Positions 1 through 21,720 of a stretch of 32,000 nt of DNA are shown one piece after another. Every line of letters begins with the position of its first letter. Within the stretch, counting starts at the first letter, position 1. A program made the translations under genes and the position numbers. This DNA comes from Opitutia bacterium KCR 482. Its GTDB lineage: Bacteria; Verrucomicrobiota; Verrucomicrobiia; Opitutales; Intestinicryptomonadaceae. The notes beneath the pieces are model-generated. The model did not search any database, had not been told where the DNA came from, and saw only the letters and a program-made list of their open reading frames with translations. Location: positions 1,770,001-1,802,000 of the forward strand of contig CP149973.1 in the NCBI GenBank assembly GCA_029269845.2, given 5' to 3'.

Positions 1-89
1 TTTTCAAGCTCTTTGAGGCTGTATATATAACCCTTTGCGCCGCCTTCTTCCGACGCAAACTTTTTCAGTGTATTGAGCGGATTTTTCAT
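1..89 (-). CDS. Hypothetical protein, N-terminal fragment (gene runs off the left edge)
   Basis: ATG at 89-87 (minus strand) is preceded by a GAGGA-like RBS, 14 nt downstream of the stop of the previous minus-strand gene. It reads MKNPLNTLKKFASEEGGAKGYIYSLKELE... and stays open to the window edge. Too short to assign a family. Confidence 0.35.
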   Translation of the reverse strand, partial: MKNPLNTLKKFASEEGGAKGYIYSLKELE

Positions 90-102
90 GTATAAAATTC
101 CT

Positions 103-2757: not shown

Positions 2758-3792
2758 ATGTCGATTTTAGATGAAATCTTAGGGTTTCTCCACTACAATC
2801 CCGATTCTACAAGGTCGGAGATAGCGGAAAACCTCGCAAACCCGCCGAGTCCTTCGAGCATGAAGCGTCTTTTGTCGGACGCCGTAGAAAACGGCATGAT
2901 TGCTATTGACGGGCGCGGGCGGGCGTCGCGCTATAGCATAACGCCGAAAGCCCACCTGTTGCGCACCTACGACGTAGACGAGTATTTCAAAAAGGAAATC
3001 GACGAGCGCACGGTTCAGACGTCGTTCAACTTCGATTTGCTCGAAAACCTTTTGCCCAAAGTGGAGCTTTTCAGCGGCGACGAAATGCGCCGTCTCGACG
3101 CCCTGCAACGGAAGTTCACGGAGAACATTTCGAAAATTTCGGCGGACTCCTACAACGCGGAAATGGAGCGGCTCGGCATAGATTTGAGCTGGAAGTCGTC
3201 TCAAATAGAGGGCAACACGTATTCGCTTTTGGAGACCGAGCGGCTTTTGCGCGAGCGCAAGCAGGCGGACGGGAAAAGCCGCGAAGAGGCTATCATGCTT
3301 TTAAACCACAAAGAGGCGCTGCGCTTTCTTCTCGAAAATCCCGACTATTTGCAGTCGCTTTCCGTAAGCCGAATCGAAGACGTGCACAGCATTCTTGTGC
3401 GCGACTTGAACGTAGAGCGCAATATCCGCAGGAGCAGGGTGGGAATCACCGGCACGAATTACAGACCGCTCGACAACGACTTCCAGATAAGGAAGGCGAT
3501 GGAGCTTGCGTGCAATCTGATAAACGGGCGCAAAAACGTTTTCGAAAGGTCGATGTTGTCGGTTTTGCTGCTGTCGTATATCCAGCCGTTTGCGGACGGC
3601 AACAAGCGCACTTCGCGGATTGTGGGCAACGCTGTTTTGATTGCCGAAAAATGCTGTCCGCTGTCGTTTAGAAGCGTCGATTCGCTCAAATACAAGGAGG
3701 CGGTTCTGGTGTTCTATGAGCAAAACAACATAAGCGCGTTCAAAAAAATATTCATCGACCAGTACGATTTTGCCGTGAACACTTATTTTTGA
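2758..3792 (+). CDS. Fic-family protein: N-terminal winged-helix-like region, internal inhibitory motif, and a non-canonical active-site motif (Gln in place of the catalytic His)
   Basis: 344 aa. The Fic core is IQPFADGNKRTSR at aa 275-287, compared with the consensus HxFx(D/E)GN(G/K)RxxR. The [ST]xxxE[GN] inhibitory motif is SSQIEG at aa 147-152. GC is visibly lower than in the neighbouring genes. Confidence 0.85.
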   Translation: MSILDEILGFLHYNPDSTRSEIAENLANPPSPSSMKRLLSDAVENGMIAIDGRGRASRYSITPKAHLLRTYDVDEYFKKEIDERTVQTSFNFDLLENLLPKVELFSGDEMRRLDALQRKFTENISKISADSYNAEMERLGIDLSWKSSQIEGNTYSLLETERLLRERKQADGKSREEAIMLLNHKEALRFLLENPDYLQSLSVSRIEDVHSILVRDLNVERNIRRSRVGITGTNYRPLDNDFQIRKAMELACNLINGRKNVFERSMLSVLLLSYIQPFADGNKRTSRIVGNAVLIAEKCCPLSFRSVDSLKYKEAVLVFYEQNNISAFKKIFIDQYDFAVNTYF

Positions 3793-3880: not shown

Positions 3881-4810
3881 ATGCTGATTTTCTGTACGGG
3901 CGCGACTGGGCTTGTCGGCTACAATTTCATAAAGGCGGCGTCGGAGGCGGGGCACCGCGTCGTTGCGGTTTCGCATTCGCACGGGCTTCCGCAGTTCAAG
4001 GGGGTCGAACAAATGAAAATCGACCTCGCCGACACCGCGGCTGTTCAACGCGCGGTTCTCGACGCGTTCCCCGAAATGGTCGTAAACTGCGCGGCGATTT
4101 CAAGCCCCGCAGACGTGGACGCAAAGCCCGAACTCGCCGAGAAAATGAACACGGTGCTCCCCGAAACTTTGGCGATCCTCGCCAAGCACGTCAACGCGCG
4201 CCTGATTCACATTTCGACCGACATGGTTTTCGACGGCTCGTGCCCGCCCTACAAAAATACCGACGTTCCCATGCCAGCAACCCTCTACGGCACAACGAAG
4301 CTCATGGCGGAAAAGCGGGTTCTGAAAATCTGCGCGCCGTCGAGCGTCGTGTTGCGCCTAAGCCACGTCAGCGGAAACAGCCTCACTACAAAACGCTCGC
4401 TGCACGAAAAGCTTTTGCGCTCTTGGGCGGCGGGAAAGCCCGTATCGGCGCGGACGGACGAAATCAAGTGCCCGCTTTCCGCGTCGAGGCTCGCCGACCT
4501 GCTTTGCGAGCTTTGCGAACGCCCGAACGTCAGCGGCATTTACCACTACGCGGGGCTTGAACCCGTCAGCCGCTACGACATGGCCGCGCGCATCGCAAAG
4601 CACTTCGGGCTTGACCCGCAAAAATACGTCGTGCCGACAACGGGCGACAGGCGCGTAGATTTGACCATGGACATGTCGTGCCTTGCCGCCCGCGTGAAAA
4701 CGCGCTCGTGCATGTTCGACGAACTTTTCGACGAAATGCGCGTGCCCGCCGACGTCGAAGACTGGCTCAAAGCCGAGGGAAAGCTGCCCGTCAAACGCTT
4801 CAAACTGTGA
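3881..4810 (+). CDS. NAD(P)-dependent SDR, RmlD-like (dTDP-4-dehydrorhamnose reductase family)
   Basis: The start is set at the internal ATG that gives MLIFCTGATGLVGYNF (a GxxGxxG Rossmann motif). It has a YGTTK (YxxxK) catalytic motif and RmlD-like length (309 aa). The upstream part of ORF 3824.. looks like non-coding leader. Confidence 0.75.
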   Translation: MLIFCTGATGLVGYNFIKAASEAGHRVVAVSHSHGLPQFKGVEQMKIDLADTAAVQRAVLDAFPEMVVNCAAISSPADVDAKPELAEKMNTVLPETLAILAKHVNARLIHISTDMVFDGSCPPYKNTDVPMPATLYGTTKLMAEKRVLKICAPSSVVLRLSHVSGNSLTTKRSLHEKLLRSWAAGKPVSARTDEIKCPLSASRLADLLCELCERPNVSGIYHYAGLEPVSRYDMAARIAKHFGLDPQKYVVPTTGDRRVDLTMDMSCLAARVKTRSCMFDELFDEMRVPADVEDWLKAEGKLPVKRFKL

Positions 4811-5835
4811 TGGCGCGTGATTCGAAAACGTCGGCGTTGTCGGGGCTTTTTGCGGCTTTCGCGCTTCTTGCGTTCTCCGCGTGTTTTGCGCGGGCGGAGG
4901 TGTCGGCGCAAAACCTTTCGGGCGCGGCTTTGAAGCCGCTTGCGGAGTCTTTCCGCGCGGGGCTTGCAAAGTGCGGCGCAAAGTCGGGCGCGGTTTGCGC
5001 GGCGGCTCGCGGGCGGATAATTTTCGGCGCGGATTTTTCGGAGGGAAGCGGGCGCGTCTACCCGCTCGGAAACACGTCCCAGCCTCTGCTTTCGCTTATG
5101 CTGGCGGCGATGGAATCCGACGGAGAATTGGCGGCGGACTGGCGCGTCGCGCGGCACTGCTCGTATTTCAAGCCCGCCGACAGCCCCGCGACTTTCGACG
5201 ACCTTCTCTCCATGCGGGCGGGCTTCGAGCCTTACGCCGATTCGCTCGTTCCGCCCGACGCCGACGCGTTCGAATTTTTCGGAATCGCAGCCCAGTTGCC
5301 CCGCGCCGCAAACGGTTTCTTCGCGAGGTCGCGAGCAAGCGCGGCTTTGGCGGGCTACGCAATGGCGTATGTTTCCGACAAGAAATCGCGCAATCTGAAA
5401 AAGGCGTTCGCCGCGTGCGCAAAAAAATACCTCTTCGAGCCGCTTGAATTTTCGTCGCCGCGCTTCGCGTCTTTCGACAAGCCCGACTTCCCCGCGACCG
5501 CGTTCGCGCTGACCGTTCCCGACTGCGCAAAATGGCTCGAATGCGAAACCGCCGACAGCCCGAAAATCGCGACCCGCGCCGCGCTGGACTCTCGCCGCAA
5601 CCCTCGCGATTCCGACTGCAAATTCGGCGGCGGCTGGACTTCCTCGACCGAATGCGGCGTCTCGTTCCGCGTGTCGGCGGACTACTTCGAGGGCTGCGCG
5701 AACGTCGTTGCGGTGTTCCCCGCCGAGCGCGTCGCGGTGGCGTTTTTCGCCGCCTCGCGCGACGCAAAGGGCGCGGCGAAACTCTGCGCCGACTCGCTTT
5801 CGCAATTCGTAAAAATTCTTTCAAACGCACAATGA
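4810..5835 (+). CDS. Exported hypothetical protein, possibly a degenerate beta-lactamase/serine-hydrolase fold
   Basis: The ATG overlaps the upstream stop (TGATG). A signal peptide is present (MARDSKTSALSGLFAAFALLAFSACFARA). The layout around GNTSQPLLSLMLAAMESDGEL...FDDLLSMRAG resembles class-C-like serine hydrolases, but SQPL sits where SxxK is expected. The family call is weak. Confidence 0.55.
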   Translation: MARDSKTSALSGLFAAFALLAFSACFARAEVSAQNLSGAALKPLAESFRAGLAKCGAKSGAVCAAARGRIIFGADFSEGSGRVYPLGNTSQPLLSLMLAAMESDGELAADWRVARHCSYFKPADSPATFDDLLSMRAGFEPYADSLVPPDADAFEFFGIAAQLPRAANGFFARSRASAALAGYAMAYVSDKKSRNLKKAFAACAKKYLFEPLEFSSPRFASFDKPDFPATAFALTVPDCAKWLECETADSPKIATRAALDSRRNPRDSDCKFGGGWTSSTECGVSFRVSADYFEGCANVVAVFPAERVAVAFFAASRDAKGAAKLCADSLSQFVKILSNAQ

Positions 5836-6809
5836 AAACCGACTTTTTTAAATCAGTTCTGCTCTTCGTTTCCGCCGCTTTCGCGCTTCCGGCGTTCGGC
5901 TCTTTGAAATTCGCGTTCGTTGCTCCCGACGCCCTCACGCCGCAAAATGCCGCCGTCTTCAACGGCATGCGCGACGCGTTTGCGGAGCTTCAATCGCGCT
6001 ACGGAAAAACCTTCGAGGTCGAGTACATCGACGCCCGCCTCTCCGCCGAAAACCAGGCAAAACAGCTCGGCGGGGCGTATATAGGCGGCTTTGCGGGCGC
6101 GGTCGTTCTGCCCGTAGAATGCGCGAAGCCGCTTTCCGAAAAAATTTCCGCGCTGGCGGACAGGGGCTTTCCCGTAGCGCTCGTAGGCTCGGACATGCCC
6201 GAATCGAAACGCCTGTGCTTTGTAGGCGACGACCGCGACTCTTTCGGGAAAATTCTTTCCGGGCTTATCGCCGAGCTTTCGCGCGGAAAAAAATTCTCGC
6301 TTTTCTGCTATTTCAGGGGCGCGCCGTCCGCCGACATTCCGCCGACCGACACCGCCGAAATCTCCGCGCTTTTGGGCGGCGCAATGCCGCTCGACGCGTA
6401 CAAAGAGGCGGTTTCGAAATACAATCCCAAGCTTGTCTCCGCCGACTACTACTCGGTTTACGCGCGGCAAAATTCCGTGGAAATCATGCGGCGCGACGAC
6501 TACGGCGAGCTGTTTTTCAGCCCCTATTTGCTCGCCGACATGCAGCCCATTAAGCGCGATTCCGACAGGCTTTTCGCTGTTTGCGTAGGCGCGGTTCCGC
6601 AGCTTGAACGCTATCTTGCCGACTCCTCCGTCAACGCGTGCGTTTTCGGCGACTACTACGGCTGGGGCTATTTTGCGGCGCGCGCACTCGCGGAAAAGGC
6701 GGTCGGGAAAAGCAATCCCGAAAAAGAAGTGCGCTTGTTGAAGCCGCTCGTTGCGACCCCAAAAAATCTCAACTCATTCATCTCAGATTGGAAACGCTGG
6801 ATAAAGTAG
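5832..6809 (+). CDS. Exported periplasmic-binding-protein-like protein (type 1 sugar-binding/LacI-like fold)
   Basis: The ATG overlaps the upstream stop by 4 nt. A signal peptide is present (MKTDFFKSVLLFVSAAFALPAFG). The pattern FAFVAPD...NGMRDAFAEL...GAVVLPVE...ALADRGFPVALVGSDMP...CFVGDD is typical of type 1 periplasmic binding proteins. Confidence 0.6.
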   Translation: MKTDFFKSVLLFVSAAFALPAFGSLKFAFVAPDALTPQNAAVFNGMRDAFAELQSRYGKTFEVEYIDARLSAENQAKQLGGAYIGGFAGAVVLPVECAKPLSEKISALADRGFPVALVGSDMPESKRLCFVGDDRDSFGKILSGLIAELSRGKKFSLFCYFRGAPSADIPPTDTAEISALLGGAMPLDAYKEAVSKYNPKLVSADYYSVYARQNSVEIMRRDDYGELFFSPYLLADMQPIKRDSDRLFAVCVGAVPQLERYLADSSVNACVFGDYYGWGYFAARALAEKAVGKSNPEKEVRLLKPLVATPKNLNSFISDWKRWIK

Positions 6810-6818
6810 GCGCGTTAG

Positions 6819-7196
6819 ACGGCGCGTGAAAGCACTTCCCTAAGGGCGTTTCCCTGTACGCCCAGACCGCTCGCGTACGAAAGTACGCCACGCGCCCTGT
6901 GCGCACAGGAAAGCCACCCTTATGAAAGCACTTTGACGCGCCTAACAAGTGAGTGCTATCGCACGAAGATTTTTAGAGTGCGCTGGGATAAAAGCGGGGT
7001 GGGGCGGTAGGCGGAGAATTTGCGTTTGCGGATTTTCGTTTTTTTTATCCGCGCAAAGCGCGTCTATTTAATTAGTTTCTGTCTGATATTCGTCAATTTC
7101 AATTCCAGTAATTGCCAACGGCAATACGAACTAAAACAGAAAAGGCGCGGTTATAGCCGCGCCGCATAATCACAGAAAGGAGCGAAGCTCCGACGA
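6819..7196. repeat. Copy A of a conserved, hairpin-rich non-coding element of about 0.4 kb (candidate structured RNA or intergenic repeat family)
   Basis: Collinear same-strand alignment with 19605-20066. The first 77 nt differ by 2 substitutions and 1 loop indel. The last ~90 nt differ at ~10 positions. Hairpins are conserved at 6873-6888, 7028-7052, 7111-7125, 7144-7163 and 7179-7191. No ORF is shared between the copies. Confidence 0.85.
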
Positions 7197-7272
7197 GTGG
7201 CGCGGCTCGCGTCTGAAATAAGGCTTGCATAATGGAGGTGTGGTGTTAAGGTTTTGGATAAAAGTACAGTTT

Positions 7273-8157: not shown

Positions 8158-8206
8158 GCCGACATTCCGCGCTTGCGGAGTCGGGTTTGCATTCTTTCAA
8201 TACACG

Positions 8207-8233
8207 GCGCGGTTTTTCGACCGCGCTTTTTTT
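8207..8233 (+). terminator. Rho-independent terminator of the TorF-like gene
   Basis: Stem GCGCGGT (8207-8213) pairs with ACCGCGC (8220-8226). Loop is TTTTCG, followed by T7 (8227-8233). Confidence 0.75.
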
Positions 8234-8340: not shown

Positions 8341-8372
8341 AAAAAAAGGCGCGGAATTTCCGCGCCTTTTTG
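8341..8372. terminator. Bidirectional rho-independent terminator (ends eda on the minus strand)
   Basis: A7 (8341-8347), then stem GGCGCGG (8348-8354) pairing with CCGCGCC (8360-8366), then T5. It lies ~25 nt downstream of the eda stop. Confidence 0.8.
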
Positions 8373-8393
8373 TTTTTTGAAATGTCGGGGAAA

Positions 8394-10783: not shown

Positions 10784-11292
10784 ATTCCTATAACAGCGTC
10801 CTTGATTTTTCCGCCAAGTTCGCGCATGAGCACGGGCATGTTCTGGTATTCCGCGCCCAGCGTGCCGTTGGCGGCTTCGGGGTAAATCATCGCGCGCGCG
10901 CGCACTTTCCTGTTTTTGAAAACGACGTCGCCGTTGGAGCGCACGAGCGTGCATTCGGCGACAGCCTCCATTGCGTAGGACGCCGCGAGCGCGGTATCGT
11001 CTTCGCGCGTGGCGACCGGCTTGCGCTCGTATGATACGATTGTCGTGGAGAGCGTCGCCTGCGCGTCGCCCGCGAGCGCGGTTTTGAGGTTTGGCGTGCG
11101 GTTTATCGCGTTCGAAATTTCGTTTGTGAGCAGGTTCGACGCCTGCGCCGCATAGGAGTCGTTCCTGACGGGCTTGACGTAGACCGACTTGAACGGAAGC
11201 TCCGTGGGAGTCCCCGCAAGCCTGTAATTTGCGCAGCCAGCCGCGAAAAGCGCGAGCGCGGAAAGCGTGAGGAGTGTGGCGAGTTTTTTCAT
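10777..11292 (-). CDS. Lipoprotein, LptE-like (LPS-assembly lipoprotein)
   Basis: 171 aa. Lipobox LFAAGC is followed by ANYRLAG (compare CGFHLRG in LptE). The size and the position next to a BamD-like gene fit. The family call is from memory and moderate. Confidence 0.55.
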   Translation of the reverse strand: MKKLATLLTLSALALFAAGCANYRLAGTPTELPFKSVYVKPVRNDSYAAQASNLLTNEISNAINRTPNLKTALAGDAQATLSTTIVSYERKPVATREDDTALAASYAMEAVAECTLVRSNGDVVFKNRKVRARAMIYPEAANGTLGAEYQNMPVLMRELGGKIKDAVIGIW

Positions 11293-18459: not shown

Positions 18460-19605
18460 ATGGGAACGATAAACAAATACATCTTCAAACAGGTCGCGAT
18501 GGCGGCGTTGATGACCGTCGCGCTGTTTGTGTTCGTGCTCGTGCTCGGCAACGTCATAAAAGAGGTTATGGGCGAGCTCGCCGCGGGAAGGCTCAGCATT
18601 TCGTTCTTTCTGTATATCGTCGCGCTGATTATACCGGGAGTCATTCCCTACGCGCTTCCGCTCGGCATGCTCACGGGCATTCTGCTTGTGTTCGGCAGAA
18701 TGTCGGCGCAAAGCGAGGTCGTGGCGATGAAGGCGTGCGGACGCTCCATTTACAGCATGGCGGCTCCCGTGTTCTTTCTGGCGATTTGCGCGTCGCTGTT
18801 TTCGGTGGCAATCAACTTCTACTACGCGCCCGCCGCCGACTACGCCTACAAGAGCGCGCTCAAAAACCTCGTCCGCGCAAACCCGCTCCAATTTATCCAA
18901 CCAGGTTCGTTTATCCGCGACTTCCCCGGCTATGTAATCTACGCAAACTCCTCCGACGGCAACGAGCTTGTGAGCTTCCGCATTTGGGAGCTTGACAAAC
19001 GGGGCAGGGCGCAGATTTCCATACAGTCGGAGCGCGGCGCGCTTTCGTACGACGACGCCCGCGACGAAATCGTGCTGACCCTCAAAAACGGCAGCGCGGA
19101 GCGCGCGAGGTCGGGCGACCCCGAAGACCTGCGCAAGCCCCTTCCGTCGGCGCGTTTCGACGAGCTTGTAATCAAGCTTCCGCTCAACGAGATTATCGGA
19201 ACTATGGACAAGGGCAAAAAGCGGCTGAAAGTAATGACTTTCGGCGAGCTTCTCGACGCCCGCGAAACTTGGCACAGATTCCCGCCCGAACAGACCACGC
19301 CCGAACGCGCGTTCCACGACAAAATCGAGGTTCAGTTGCAGATTCAGAAAAATTTTGCGATGGCGTTTTCGATATTTTCGATGGTGGTGCTCGCCGTTCC
19401 GCTCGGAATAAAGGCAAGCAGAAGCGAGACTTTTGCGAACTTGGCGATAGCGCTGGCGTTGGCGATGAGCTACTACATGATGACGGTCGTGATTTCGTGG
19501 CTCGAAAAATACCCCGAAATGCGCCCCGACATTCTGATTTGGATACCCAATTTCATATTCCAAGCCGTAGGCACATACTTAATCTATCGGTCATCGCGCA
19601 ACTAA
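18460..19605 (+). CDS. LptF/LptG-family (YjgP/YjgQ) LPS export permease
   Basis: 381 aa. It has the typical N-terminus INKYIFKQV, three N-terminal TM helices, a central periplasmic beta-jellyroll-like region, and C-terminal TM helices. Confidence 0.85.
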   Translation: MGTINKYIFKQVAMAALMTVALFVFVLVLGNVIKEVMGELAAGRLSISFFLYIVALIIPGVIPYALPLGMLTGILLVFGRMSAQSEVVAMKACGRSIYSMAAPVFFLAICASLFSVAINFYYAPAADYAYKSALKNLVRANPLQFIQPGSFIRDFPGYVIYANSSDGNELVSFRIWELDKRGRAQISIQSERGALSYDDARDEIVLTLKNGSAERARSGDPEDLRKPLPSARFDELVIKLPLNEIIGTMDKGKKRLKVMTFGELLDARETWHRFPPEQTTPERAFHDKIEVQLQIQKNFAMAFSIFSMVVLAVPLGIKASRSETFANLAIALALAMSYYMMTVVISWLEKYPEMRPDILIWIPNFIFQAVGTYLIYRSSRN

Positions 19606-20066
19606 CGGCGCGTGAAAATACTTCCCTAAGGGCGTTTCCCTGTACGCCCAGACCGCTCGCGTACGATAAGTACGCCACGCGCACGGGGCGTGAAAGCACC
19701 GTTGATGCGGCGTTTCGCGAGTGTCTCAGACCGCTTACATACGCCAAGTATGCTGCGCGCCCTGTGCCACTCGCAAAGCCGCCGCCTGAACGGCACTTTG
19801 ACGCCCCTAAAATTACAGCGCACGGCGCGGAAGATTTTTAGAATGCGCTGGGAGAAAAGTGGAGTTATTGGGTTGGTGAGCCGACTTGTGTTTGCGGATT
19901 GCCGTTTTTTTATTTATCCGCGCGGAGCGCGTCTATTTTAATTTGTTTCTTGCAAACATTCGGCAATCCCTATCGTCAGTAATTGCCGCAGGCAATACGG
20001 ACTAATCCAGAAAAGGCGCGGTTATAGCCGCGCCGAATAATCACAGAAAGGAACGAAGTTCCGACG
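19605..20066. repeat. Copy B of the conserved non-coding element, with its 78-nt 5' module tandemly duplicated
   Basis: It aligns with 6819-7196. Module 1 is 19605-19682 and module 2 is 19683-19760 (50/78 gapless identities by hand count). Conserved hairpins lie at 19659-19675, 19738-19752, 19894-19921, 19981-19995, 20014-20033 and 20050-20062. Confidence 0.85.
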
Positions 20067-20242
20067 CCGTGCAGGCTGCAGCCTGCCTCGCGCCTTGGGG
20101 CTTGACTTTTTGGGGGGAGTGGGCAAAATGAGTTGATGTTGGAGGGCGATATACGCTTGGGGGTATTTGAGCCGATGGCGTGGTATTCTTGGGTGTATGT
20201 GGCTCTTGTTTTTCAAAAATAAAATCAAAGGAAGAGAAGAAT

Positions 20243-21613: not shown

Positions 21614-21665
21614 TCCGCAAAAAGGCGGTTGCGGAGAATGCTCCCCGACCGCCCGCGCGGCAAAC

Positions 21666-21703
21666 AAAAAAGGCTTTCGGATTTCCCCGAAAGCCTTTTT
21701 TTT
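21666..21703. terminator. Bidirectional rho-independent terminator between convergent genes
   Basis: An A-run is followed by stem AGGCTTTCGG (21671-21680) pairing with CCGAAAGCCT (21687-21696), then T8. Confidence 0.8.
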
Positions 21704-21720
21704 GCGCCTCGTTTTAAGCC

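Follow-up and report, generated by a model that had tools for sequence, protein, structure and literature searches.

Why should a non-coding segment of about 0.4 kb occur twice, on the same strand and between unrelated genes, within a short stretch of a verrucomicrobial genome? The stretch in question, 32,000 nucleotides of contig CP149973.1 of Opitutia bacterium KCR 482 (assembly GCA_029269845.2, positions 1,770,001 to 1,802,000) and hereafter called the window, carries one copy of the segment at 6819–7196 (copy A) and another at 19605–20066 (copy B). An earlier interpretation made from the letters alone, the sequence-only reading, had offered three roles for the pair: a structured small RNA (sRNA) or long leader, a regulatory or promoter-carrying intergenic repeat, or a non-autonomous mobile element. 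An intergenic repeat or non-autonomous mobile element fits best, because the copies are numerous, confined to one species and one relative, modular, and mosaic between strains whose flanking genes are about 99% identical; the leader or promoter role fell away. We consider it probable that A and B are members of a family of modular intergenic repeats, multicopy and restricted to its lineage, that resembles repetitive extragenic palindromes (REPs), REPINs and BIMEs and is transcribed as a 3' untranslated region (3' UTR) and terminator region. The family is new and its kind is known, namely that of the REP/REPIN elements and of mosaic regions such as the BIMEs of E. coli and the NIMEs of Neisseria; it is probably not a new RNA gene.

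The two copies in the window

The sequence-only reading had described 6819–7196 and 19605–20066 as a collinear, non-coding pair on the same strand, and alignment with MAFFT and blastn bears this out. Searched against the window, copy A matches 19683–20066 at 75.7% identity over 395 columns with E=5e-64, far above chance, and 19605–19690 at 93% over 86 nt with E=2e-31. The near-identical start (97% over the 62 nt of 6819–6880 and 19605–19666), the similar end (90% over the 90 nt of 7106–7195 and 19977–20066) and the conserved middle blocks that had been named were likewise found in both copies. Reading frames are broken by indels between the copies, which are thus not protein-coding, and the sole open reading frame (ORF) that runs over copy B, at 19269–19841, overlaps the LptF/G gene and was dismissed as a chance ORF. 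No third copy was found in the window, either by blastn or with the two covariance models that we refer to as R1 (core) and R2 (long hairpin).

The flanking genes, assigned by Pfam, are unrelated, as had been claimed: copy A stands between a Peripla_BP_4 gene and a Gcw_chp porin gene, copy B between LptF_LptG and a Tat-type GFO_IDH_MocA gene. The spacer alone is common to the two loci, which rules out a segmental duplication. Copy A starts 10 nt past the TAG at 6807–6809 and copy B directly at the TAA at 19603–19605, and they end 77 nt (A) and 177 nt (B) before the next plus-strand ATG, which in both cases opens a gene for an exported product; these placements too had been read correctly from the letters. 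The absence of a described RNA family was confirmed in so far as a search of the window at Rfam gathering thresholds returned 0 matches and E-value searches of both copies returned nothing credible, the best matches in Rfam 15 being implausible and far under threshold (MIR949, 25.7 vs 100 bits); a scan for tRNA and tmRNA was equally negative.

Two points of the earlier description had to be amended. Copy B is collinear with copy A, as stated, but does not contain a simple inserted spacer: it opens with half of a long hairpin of the copy A type (78 nt, 19606–19683), and a complete long hairpin of another allele (19684–19810) comes next. The latter is the true counterpart of 6820–6945, to which it is 72.6% identical, with compensatory changes in the stem. 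The ends of the element had been drawn too short, the left one extending to a GTAGG tag at 6806–6810 and the right one to a tagged GC hairpin (7192–7213 in A; 20063–20086 in B). Strain variants of locus A were not recovered by exact-protein look-ups of the PBP-like gene and the porin, differences in start-codon calling being the probable cause.

Copy number and host range

The genome of one representative of each of 185,579 species was scanned for the exact motif of H1, the first of three small hairpins that form the core of the element. This yielded 16 matches, all in a single metagenome-assembled genome, that of Opitutia bacterium UBA4654 (Verrucomicrobiota), many of them at contig ends. A looser pattern, run over human-gut metagenomes, added 12 further loci of the same species; the proteins of the window are themselves found on many human-gut metagenome contigs. 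Within the 308 kb of sequence collected, model R1 gave 37 matches and model R2 gave 22 full matches, and at least 20 distinct genomic loci were counted, all in UBA4654, in addition to a diverged version in one related species (loci and contigs compared with the window are labelled here with L-numbers). The element is therefore multicopy and not a pair private to the window. Three pattern matches that looked like solitary copies of the long hairpin (L015 at 7649, L018 at 4796 and the window at 4692) lie inside coding sequence and were set aside as chance. An origin from phages or plasmids was likewise rejected, as no match was obtained in viral contigs (two pattern scans) or in phage and plasmid collections (blastn).

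The related species, GCA_965346655.1 (L028), whose LptF/G is 83% identical, carries a diverged composite directly after the LptF/G stop codon. It comprises a hairpin like the long hairpin of the window, a hairpin like module M4 (see below) but of different sequence and followed by a T-run, and H1, H2 and H3, in which the base pairs are different and the linkers unchanged; 7 kb from this composite is another copy, a short one. Neither model R1 nor model R2 detects a copy after LptF/G in relatives at 89%, 80% and 72% identity. Given the diverged copies of L028 and their absence from these relatives, the family predates the species and is patchily distributed, and its position coincides with a break of synteny. 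The gene order upstream of LptF/G is kept in the closer relatives (L027 and L028; L027–L030 were compared around 11146–11200, against the window at 19605), and the gene that follows LptF/G differs in five of the five lineages sampled, where we found Gfo, DUF2157, GH97, a long AT-rich spacer and an EF-hand protein. The repeat is placed exactly at this break.

Module organization of the repeat

Every copy follows the same order of modules: a long hairpin (LH), M2, M3, M4, M5, the three core hairpins H1-H2-H3, and a tail of tagged GC hairpins. All features described here are on the plus strand. At the left junction of copy A (6806–6819), behind the GTAGG tag (6806–6810) stand 10 nt left over from the left end of an LH, GCGCGTTAGA. 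The Peripla_BP_4 gene upstream (5532–6809) ends with the TAG of this tag, and the same GTAGG/CGCGTG junction recurs in L018, L032 and L035. The LH itself (6820–6945) folds as an imperfect palindrome of about 125 nt, scores 138.5 bits with model R2 and matches itself in reverse at 72.6%. The internal loops GTGAAAGCAC, GCGTTTC, CAGACCGC, GAAAGCC and GCACTTTGAC are conserved in LH, and its stem segments are variable and covary. Over the family, the ends of LH read ACGGSGCGTG ... ACGCSCCTAA, with TTAGGSGCGT readable on either strand. M2 (6946–7000) is a hairpin with the conserved loop GAAGATTTTTAGA at 6965–6977, then GTGCGCTGGGATAAAAG. M3 (7001–7049) consists of a variable spacer and a hairpin, GCGGAT at 7028–7033 paired with ATCCGC at 7047–7052 around a T-rich loop, and is the homologue of the terminator hairpin of a second subfamily, LH2, described below. 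M4 (7050–7082), which also marks the 5' boundary of short forms of the repeat, is a GC hairpin, CGCGC-AAA-GCGCG at 7050–7062, with a T-rich tail that makes it resemble an intrinsic terminator. M5 (7083–7106) is a variable linker of about 25 nt ending, ahead of H1, in a semi-conserved motif of the CCAAYGCC type.

The core of copy A (7107–7196; 108.5 bits with model R1) is made of H1 at 7107–7128 (AGTAATTGCC-AAC-GGCAATACG), H2 at 7144–7163 (GGCGCGGTTATAGCCGCGCC, terminator-like on the minus strand) and H3 at 7179–7191 (GGAGC-GAA-GCTCC), separated by the conserved linkers ACGRACTAA and CATAAYCAC. The 3' tail (7192–7213) adds a GACG tag (7192–7195) and one REP-like GC hairpin, GGCGCGGCTCGCGTC, at 7199–7213. 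In copy B, the left junction (19603–19683) is formed by the TAA of LptF/G (19603–19605), which runs into ACGGCGCGTG and the half copy, made of the A-type left arm of LH and an apical hairpin. Then come the complete LH of the B-type allele (19684–19810; 140.7 bits with R2), M2 and M3 (19811–19918; loop GAAGATTTTTAGA at 19830–19842, GCGGAT at 19894–19899 paired with ATCCGC at 19916–19921), M4 and M5 (19919–19977; CGCGC-GGA-GCGCG at 19919–19931 with a T-rich, terminator-like tail), the core (19978–20067; H1 19978–19999, H2 20015–20034, H3 20050–20062; 109.1 bits with R1) and the tail (20063–20086), with its GACG tag and the REP-like hairpin GCAGGCTGCAGCCTGC at 20071–20086. Over the family, M4 reads CGCGC-NNN-GCGCG, H1 AGTAATTGSC-NNN-GSCAATACG, H2 either GGCGCGGTTATAGCCGCGCC or GCGGCAAGTATACTTGCCGC, and H3 GGARC-GAA-GYTCC, and the tail contains from 1 to about 8 small GC-rich hairpins.

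Triloops of the C-GNA-G type close H3 (7181–7189 in copy A), M4 (7052–7060) and, in many other copies, H1, which in the window reads CCAACGG or CCGCAGG (around 7115–7121). GCGAAGC itself is present, letter for letter, in H3 of copy A, and many copies have it in H1; it may hint at a stage as single-stranded DNA, in which this heptamer forms an exceptionally stable mini-hairpin.

Mosaicism between loci and strains

Modules are duplicated, halved or missing from one locus to another and their order is unchanged. LHs may be halved or stand up to three in succession, and there are tandem cores, short forms that begin at M4, and extra units of 157 nt that correspond to the right half of LH with M2 and M3. 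The clearest view of this variation is offered by the locus between LptF/G and Gfo, for which 12 strains could be compared with the window. Their flanking genes are 98.6–99.6% identical at the DNA level, and their spacers measure 557–864 nt, with 71–93% identity in aligned columns and 100–233 gap columns, except for L008, which has the length of the window and 4 gap columns; whole modules are swapped or duplicated. At a second locus, next to a CitMHS transporter gene, the full composite is present in one strain (L020) and the core has been lost in another (L033). The stem segments of LH occur as a few discrete alleles shuffled among copies. Module swaps between strains with flanks that are about 99% identical fit a population of repeats that exchange sequence between copies; they do not fit a locus-specific regulator.

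The repeat is also interrupted by other elements. An insertion sequence (IS) end, TGATGTGTGCCC..., lies in the loop of H2 in L025 and in M3 in L013; if this IS and recombination are taken together, the core is interrupted in L025 and L002. The same end, TGATGTGTGCCCGAAAAATAG..., is seen at 76–96 (minus strand) of L025 and at 3527–3547 of L013, followed some 45 nt on by an ORF starting with ATG (MQNRKAKQMGK), both at contig ends; it resembles an IS3-family end and would be one that targets these repeats. An autonomous element with an internal gene was considered for L017/L040 and rejected, as the gene between M4 and a short form there is an ordinary DUF1080-like lipoprotein gene.

A second, diverged subfamily, LH2, was found at 1621–1810 of L033 (in the stretch 1620–2100) and at 5727–5930 of L015. 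It keeps GCGTTTC ... CAAAGCC, the apical GTAC-loop-GTAC and the P1 stem, the terminal TAA being retained in the L033 copy only, and after it come an M2-like hairpin and a terminator of canonical, bidirectional form, the H1-H3 core being absent. LH2 starts 20–45 nt past a stop codon and does not abut it.

Position relative to the neighbouring genes

The constant neighbour of the element is the stop codon of the upstream gene. Among the independent loci that begin with LH, 11 of 12 have the stop codon of a long ORF on the same strand between -17 and +10 nt of the start of LH (offsets counted from the C of ACGG). These upstream genes are real and unrelated to each other, and encode AdoHcyase, a PLP decarboxylase, the CitMHS transporter, a flavin reductase, AP_endonuc_2, a LysM/TPR protein, Asd, LptF/G and the PBP-like protein. 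In many instances the stop is furnished by the tag of the element, GTAGG giving TAG (the window at 6806–6810, L018, L032 and L035), TGACGG giving TGA and TAACGG giving TAA; at other loci it lies inside LH (GCGTGA, GCGTCATAG). The same gene may carry different tags according to the strain (TGACGG in L021 vs GTAGG in L035), and in L036 the stop used in L025 is lost, so that the gene reads four codons into LH; the CitMHS gene and the gene of L025/L036 use different stops supplied by the element in different strains.

No comparable regularity exists on the downstream side, and this bears on the proposal that the element is a cis-regulatory leader or promoter region. Both downstream genes in the window are on the plus strand and encode exported proteins, and the copies of L014, L023/L039 and L031 also precede proteins with signal peptides, but the downstream gene is convergent in L013, L019, L026 and L016_6089 and co-directional elsewhere, the downstream genes of other loci include rpmH and a tRNA-synthetase-like gene, and short forms may be placed between two genes in antisense orientation. 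The spacing varies on the downstream side and is fixed with respect to the upstream stop. A promoter scan of the conserved part found none on either strand, and M4/M5 and the minus strand of M2, when searched by hand for TTGnnn-N17-TAnnnT, showed nothing common to the copies, so that a promoter inside the repeat was rejected. The only promoter match around the copies lies beyond the repeat, a sigma-70-like site of the Gfo gene (TTGACT-16-CAAAAT, 20102–20129, plus strand) that is kept in all strains and marks the right limit of the repeat region; judged by sequence, the downstream genes appear to have their own promoters after the element, common to the strains while the repeat varies. A leader or promoter role for the downstream gene is accordingly very improbable.

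In many co-directional loci (L014, L015, L023, L037 and L039) a T7-8 run comes after the last tail hairpin and passes directly into the -35 box of the next gene, TTGACA or TTGTCA; at this tight junction of terminator and promoter, a G-rich spacer (ggggtgg) precedes a -10 box of the TAnnnT type.

Covariation and strand bias

An alignment of 21 distinct copies of LH contains 43 predicted base pairs, 21 of which show compensatory double changes, and in 29 distinct copies of the core such changes occur in the stems of H1, H2 and H3, with linkers that are nearly invariant. From these compensatory changes in LH and in all three core stems, the structure of both parts is read as being under selection.

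For the core, the same observations could mean that M4/M5 with H1-H3 (about 90–150 nt) is a multicopy functional RNA, either a trans-acting sRNA or an RNA processed from 3' UTRs, whose linkers ACGRACUAA, CAUAAYCAC and GAAAGG bind targets or a protein and to which LH and the REP-like tail are accessory. Covariation of all three stems around constant linkers is what such an RNA would show, and the two copies of the related species retain the stems through other base pairs and the linkers unchanged; core-only short forms occur in any orientation to their neighbours, like an independent gene, and in several loci the T7-8 run after the last tail hairpin is a possible terminator. Yet no promoter-like site was seen on either strand of the conserved part, the sequence upstream of short forms is unrelated, and the fold energy of the core shows no preference between strands (-29.3 vs -28.6 kcal/mol). 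The core is absent from one strain at a locus where another has it (L033 vs L020) and is interrupted by IS or recombination in L025 and L002, no Rfam match exists, and at least 20 near-identical sRNA genes in one genome would be unusual. We regard a functional RNA as unlikely.

LH behaves differently from the core with respect to strand. The minus strand, which is antisense to the upstream gene, gives the more stable fold in all 21 copies, on average -82.1 vs -65.8 kcal/mol. Twelve column pairs alternate between Watson-Crick pairs and C.A or A.C, two more are invariant A.C, and all 14 read as G.U on the minus strand, whereas swaps through G.T on the plus strand are restricted to three column pairs. 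The LH2 hairpin and that of L028 lean towards the minus strand in the same way. This bias could, by analogy with attC, reflect a step as single-stranded DNA on the bottom strand. The GC skew of the surrounding 7–32 kb, taken in the orientation of the element, is positive in 13 of 17 loci, which suggests that the plus strand of the element tends to be the leading strand; gene orientation and duplicate loci confound this figure, which was left unused.

The bias can be extended into a further explanation, according to which LH is a substrate for recombination or transposition as single-stranded DNA on the bottom strand, similar to attC or IS200/IS605, and is put beside stop codons by a dedicated recombinase. 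Sites of the attC type, such as the VCRs, are imperfect palindromes of about 60–140 nt directly after ORFs that are folded on the bottom strand, and LH shares with them its size of about 125 nt, its position and its strand preference (14 column pairs neutral only on the minus strand vs three on the plus strand, in addition to the 21 of 21 copies). The C-GNA-G triloops of H1, H3 and M4, such as the very stable GCGAAGC, and the location of the element at the synteny break after LptF/G point in the same direction. Against this, the ends of LH lack R''/R' core sites (RYYYAAC ... GTTRRRY) and R/L boxes, and conservation extends along the whole hairpin instead of its base alone. The upstream genes are housekeeping genes and not a promoterless cassette array with IntI, the sole tyrosine recombinase nearby is XerC/D-like, and the collected sequence, which covers a small part of the genome and was searched by tblastn with a single RayT query, yielded no HUH or RAYT gene. 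Such a substrate is therefore a quite improbable explanation of LH.

Putative terminators and the predicted fate of the transcript

Terminator-like sites are enriched in the repeat, with 4 in copy A against 1.1 expected and 6 in copy B against 1.5. The scan matched 7050–7062 (+), 7163–7144 (-), 19919–19931 (+) and 20034–20015 (-), and H2 and H3 were flagged as terminator-like on the minus strand. A GC stem-loop followed by a U-rich tract, the pattern of an intrinsic terminator, is seen in M4 (plus strand) and in H2 (minus strand), which we take as putative terminators. The hairpin and T-run are retained with a different sequence in the related species (L028), LH2 units end in canonical terminators, and the T7-8 run after the last tail hairpin of several loci could be a terminator as well. 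The canonical terminators of the organism (in the window at 8204–8232, 8343–8378 and 21656–21711) are built as GGCGCGG-loop-CCGCGCC with a T-run, or as AAAAAAGGCTTTCGG ... CCGAAAGCCTTTTTTTT; their stems are H2-like, and H2 may derive from, or act as, a terminator stem.

The preferred explanation, that of a REP/BIME-like repeat, suggests the following course of events. The repeat would spread and be homogenised at the DNA level, by recombination or gene conversion between copies and possibly by a single-strand transposase of the HUH/RAYT type that recognises the tag and the hairpin, and it would persist through tolerated insertions at the 3' ends of genes. Transcription of the upstream gene would run on into the repeat and give a long, structured 3' UTR in which LH and M2 form hairpins resistant to exonucleases, M4 (a canonical terminator in LH2) would end the sense transcript, and H2 and H3, read on the opposite strand, would block antisense transcription from outside. 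That LH, M2 and a terminator form one transcribed unit is suggested by LH2, which consists of just these parts without the core. Since LH starts 0–15 nt from the stop codon, it would be expected to hinder terminating ribosomes, by analogy with the E. coli REPs situated less than 16 nt from a stop codon.

Relation to known repeat families

The small GC hairpins of the family are almost confined to the 600 nt downstream of H1 and carry GACG-N3-4 or GTAGG-N2 on their 5' side, which the 3' half of H3 often precedes. The hairpins GGCGCGGCTCGCGCC, GCAGGCTGCAGCCTGC, GGCGCACCTTGCGCC and GGGGGCnnnGCCCCC recur at many loci and are short GC-rich palindromes such as those that define REPs. GTAGG precedes hairpins of the GGCGCACC type as well as LH in the window (copy A), L018, L032 and L035; other hairpins and LH copies have GACG(G), TAACGG or NACGG in place of GTAG. 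REPs form tagged superfamilies (GTAG and CGTC), lie less than 20 bp from the ends of upstream ORFs and often donate a TAG stop codon, and GTAG REPs are particularly abundant in Opitutus terrae, which belongs to the same class as the present host (Di Nocera et al., PMC3733652). The same study describes tagged repeats interleaved with other repeat families in the mosaic regions of Neisseria.

The present family shares with REPs and BIMEs the GC-rich, extragenic, tagged hairpins clustered in mosaic intergenic regions between co-directional and convergent genes, the end of an upstream ORF within 20 nt, often with a TAG supplied by the repeat (PMC3733652), which was found here at 11 of 12 loci, and the variation of mosaic units with locus and strain. 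The repeat would also be expected to affect the 3' ends of mRNAs and the termination of translation, as E. coli REPs less than 16 nt from a stop codon stall ribosomes (Liang et al. 2015, summarised in PMC12306157). The insertion of an IS into a hairpin loop is a further likeness. IS1397 inserts into the hairpin loops of E. coli BIMEs. On the other hand, there is no sequence similarity, the family unit, at about 400–860 nt, is much larger and strictly ordered, its first module is a hairpin of 125 nt in contrast to the 20–40 bp of REPs, and the tail hairpins are in direct and not inverted orientation.

Other systems resemble the family in part. As in the REPINs of Pseudomonas and others, LH is a hairpin of about 125 nt with ends that read alike, 5'-[G/T]TAGG-SGCGT on either strand, and it is multicopy and evolves as a population within one genome, as REPINs do (PMC8049555). 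Unlike the arms of REPINs, those of LH do not form a small palindrome each; moreover, LH never occurs without further modules, which are attached in one orientation, and no RAYT is known for it. The NIMEs (dRS3/RS) and Correia elements are comparable in being lineage-restricted mosaic intergenic regions of tagged small repeats (PMC3733652); their sequences differ, NIMEs are tied to phage integration sites and to pilin/opa loci, and Correia elements have defined terminal inverted repeats (TIRs) and a TA duplication, whereas no target duplication can be defined here. As to strain variation itself, NIMEs are hot spots of recombination and of differences between strains. The BOX elements of S. pneumoniae are modular, with boxA, a variable number of boxB and boxC, and form stable RNA structures, and ERIC is an imperfect palindrome of about 127 nt in transcribed intergenic regions, often just past stop codons. 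The variable number of modules recalls the former and the size of LH the latter (ERIC/IRU), but sequences and host phylum are unrelated and the present family has at least eight ordered modules, with terminator-like hairpins on both strands. With respect to the features of miniature inverted-repeat transposable elements, the arms of LH are inverted repeats (72.6%) and the whole composite lacks TIRs; the flanks TA, TAA or YTAR are part of the palindrome and cannot be distinguished from a target duplication; no transposase was found beside any copy, and in the part of the genome seen the strains differ by module swaps and not by empty sites.

Several points weigh against assigning the family to the REP/BIME kind and have to be set beside these likenesses. 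The 125-nt LH and the ordered layout of eight modules are larger and more regular than in classic REPs. The GTAG tag is present in some copies only, and the GACGG or NACGG of the others is not in the published orientation of CGTC. No transposase is linked to the family, the tblastn search with E. coli RayT (best E=3) being limited to one distant query and to a small part of the genome. Clean presence or absence of the whole unit with a target duplication was not observed, so that mobility itself is deduced. The minus-strand bias of LH pairing is not accounted for by transcription as a 3' UTR with the upstream gene alone, and the maintenance of H1-H3 with their unpaired linkers in a species with 83% LptF/G identity could indicate a sequence-specific function beyond selfish spread. 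A gene of the Fic/DOC family at 2758–3792 of the window (Pfam E=1e-10), 3 kb upstream of copy A, showed no link to the repeat.

Two of these points, the strand asymmetry of LH and the conservation of H1-H3 between species, are the features in which novelty might be hidden. They could mean either that LH is a mobile element actively targeted to stop codons, which folds as single-stranded DNA on the antisense strand and supplies TAG, TGA or TAA from its tag, or that H1-H3 is a new multicopy structured RNA of the gut Opitutia, with at least 20 genes per genome and a sequence-specific partner; we hold it rather unlikely that one of the two applies. The significance of the family would be higher only if the targeting of stop codons, the strand bias or the H1-H3 core reflected a new mechanism.

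As a REP/BIME-like repeat, the family extends this type of mosaic element to the Opitutia of the gut in an unusually large and strictly ordered form. It provides about 12 natural cases of a very stable hairpin that starts at or inside a stop codon, which could be used in the study of translation termination, of mRNA 3' ends and of the evolution of gene ends. Moreover, it explains the breaks of assemblies at certain intergenic regions of a common uncultured lineage of human-gut Verrucomicrobia, as well as the differences in spacers between strains that are otherwise nearly identical.

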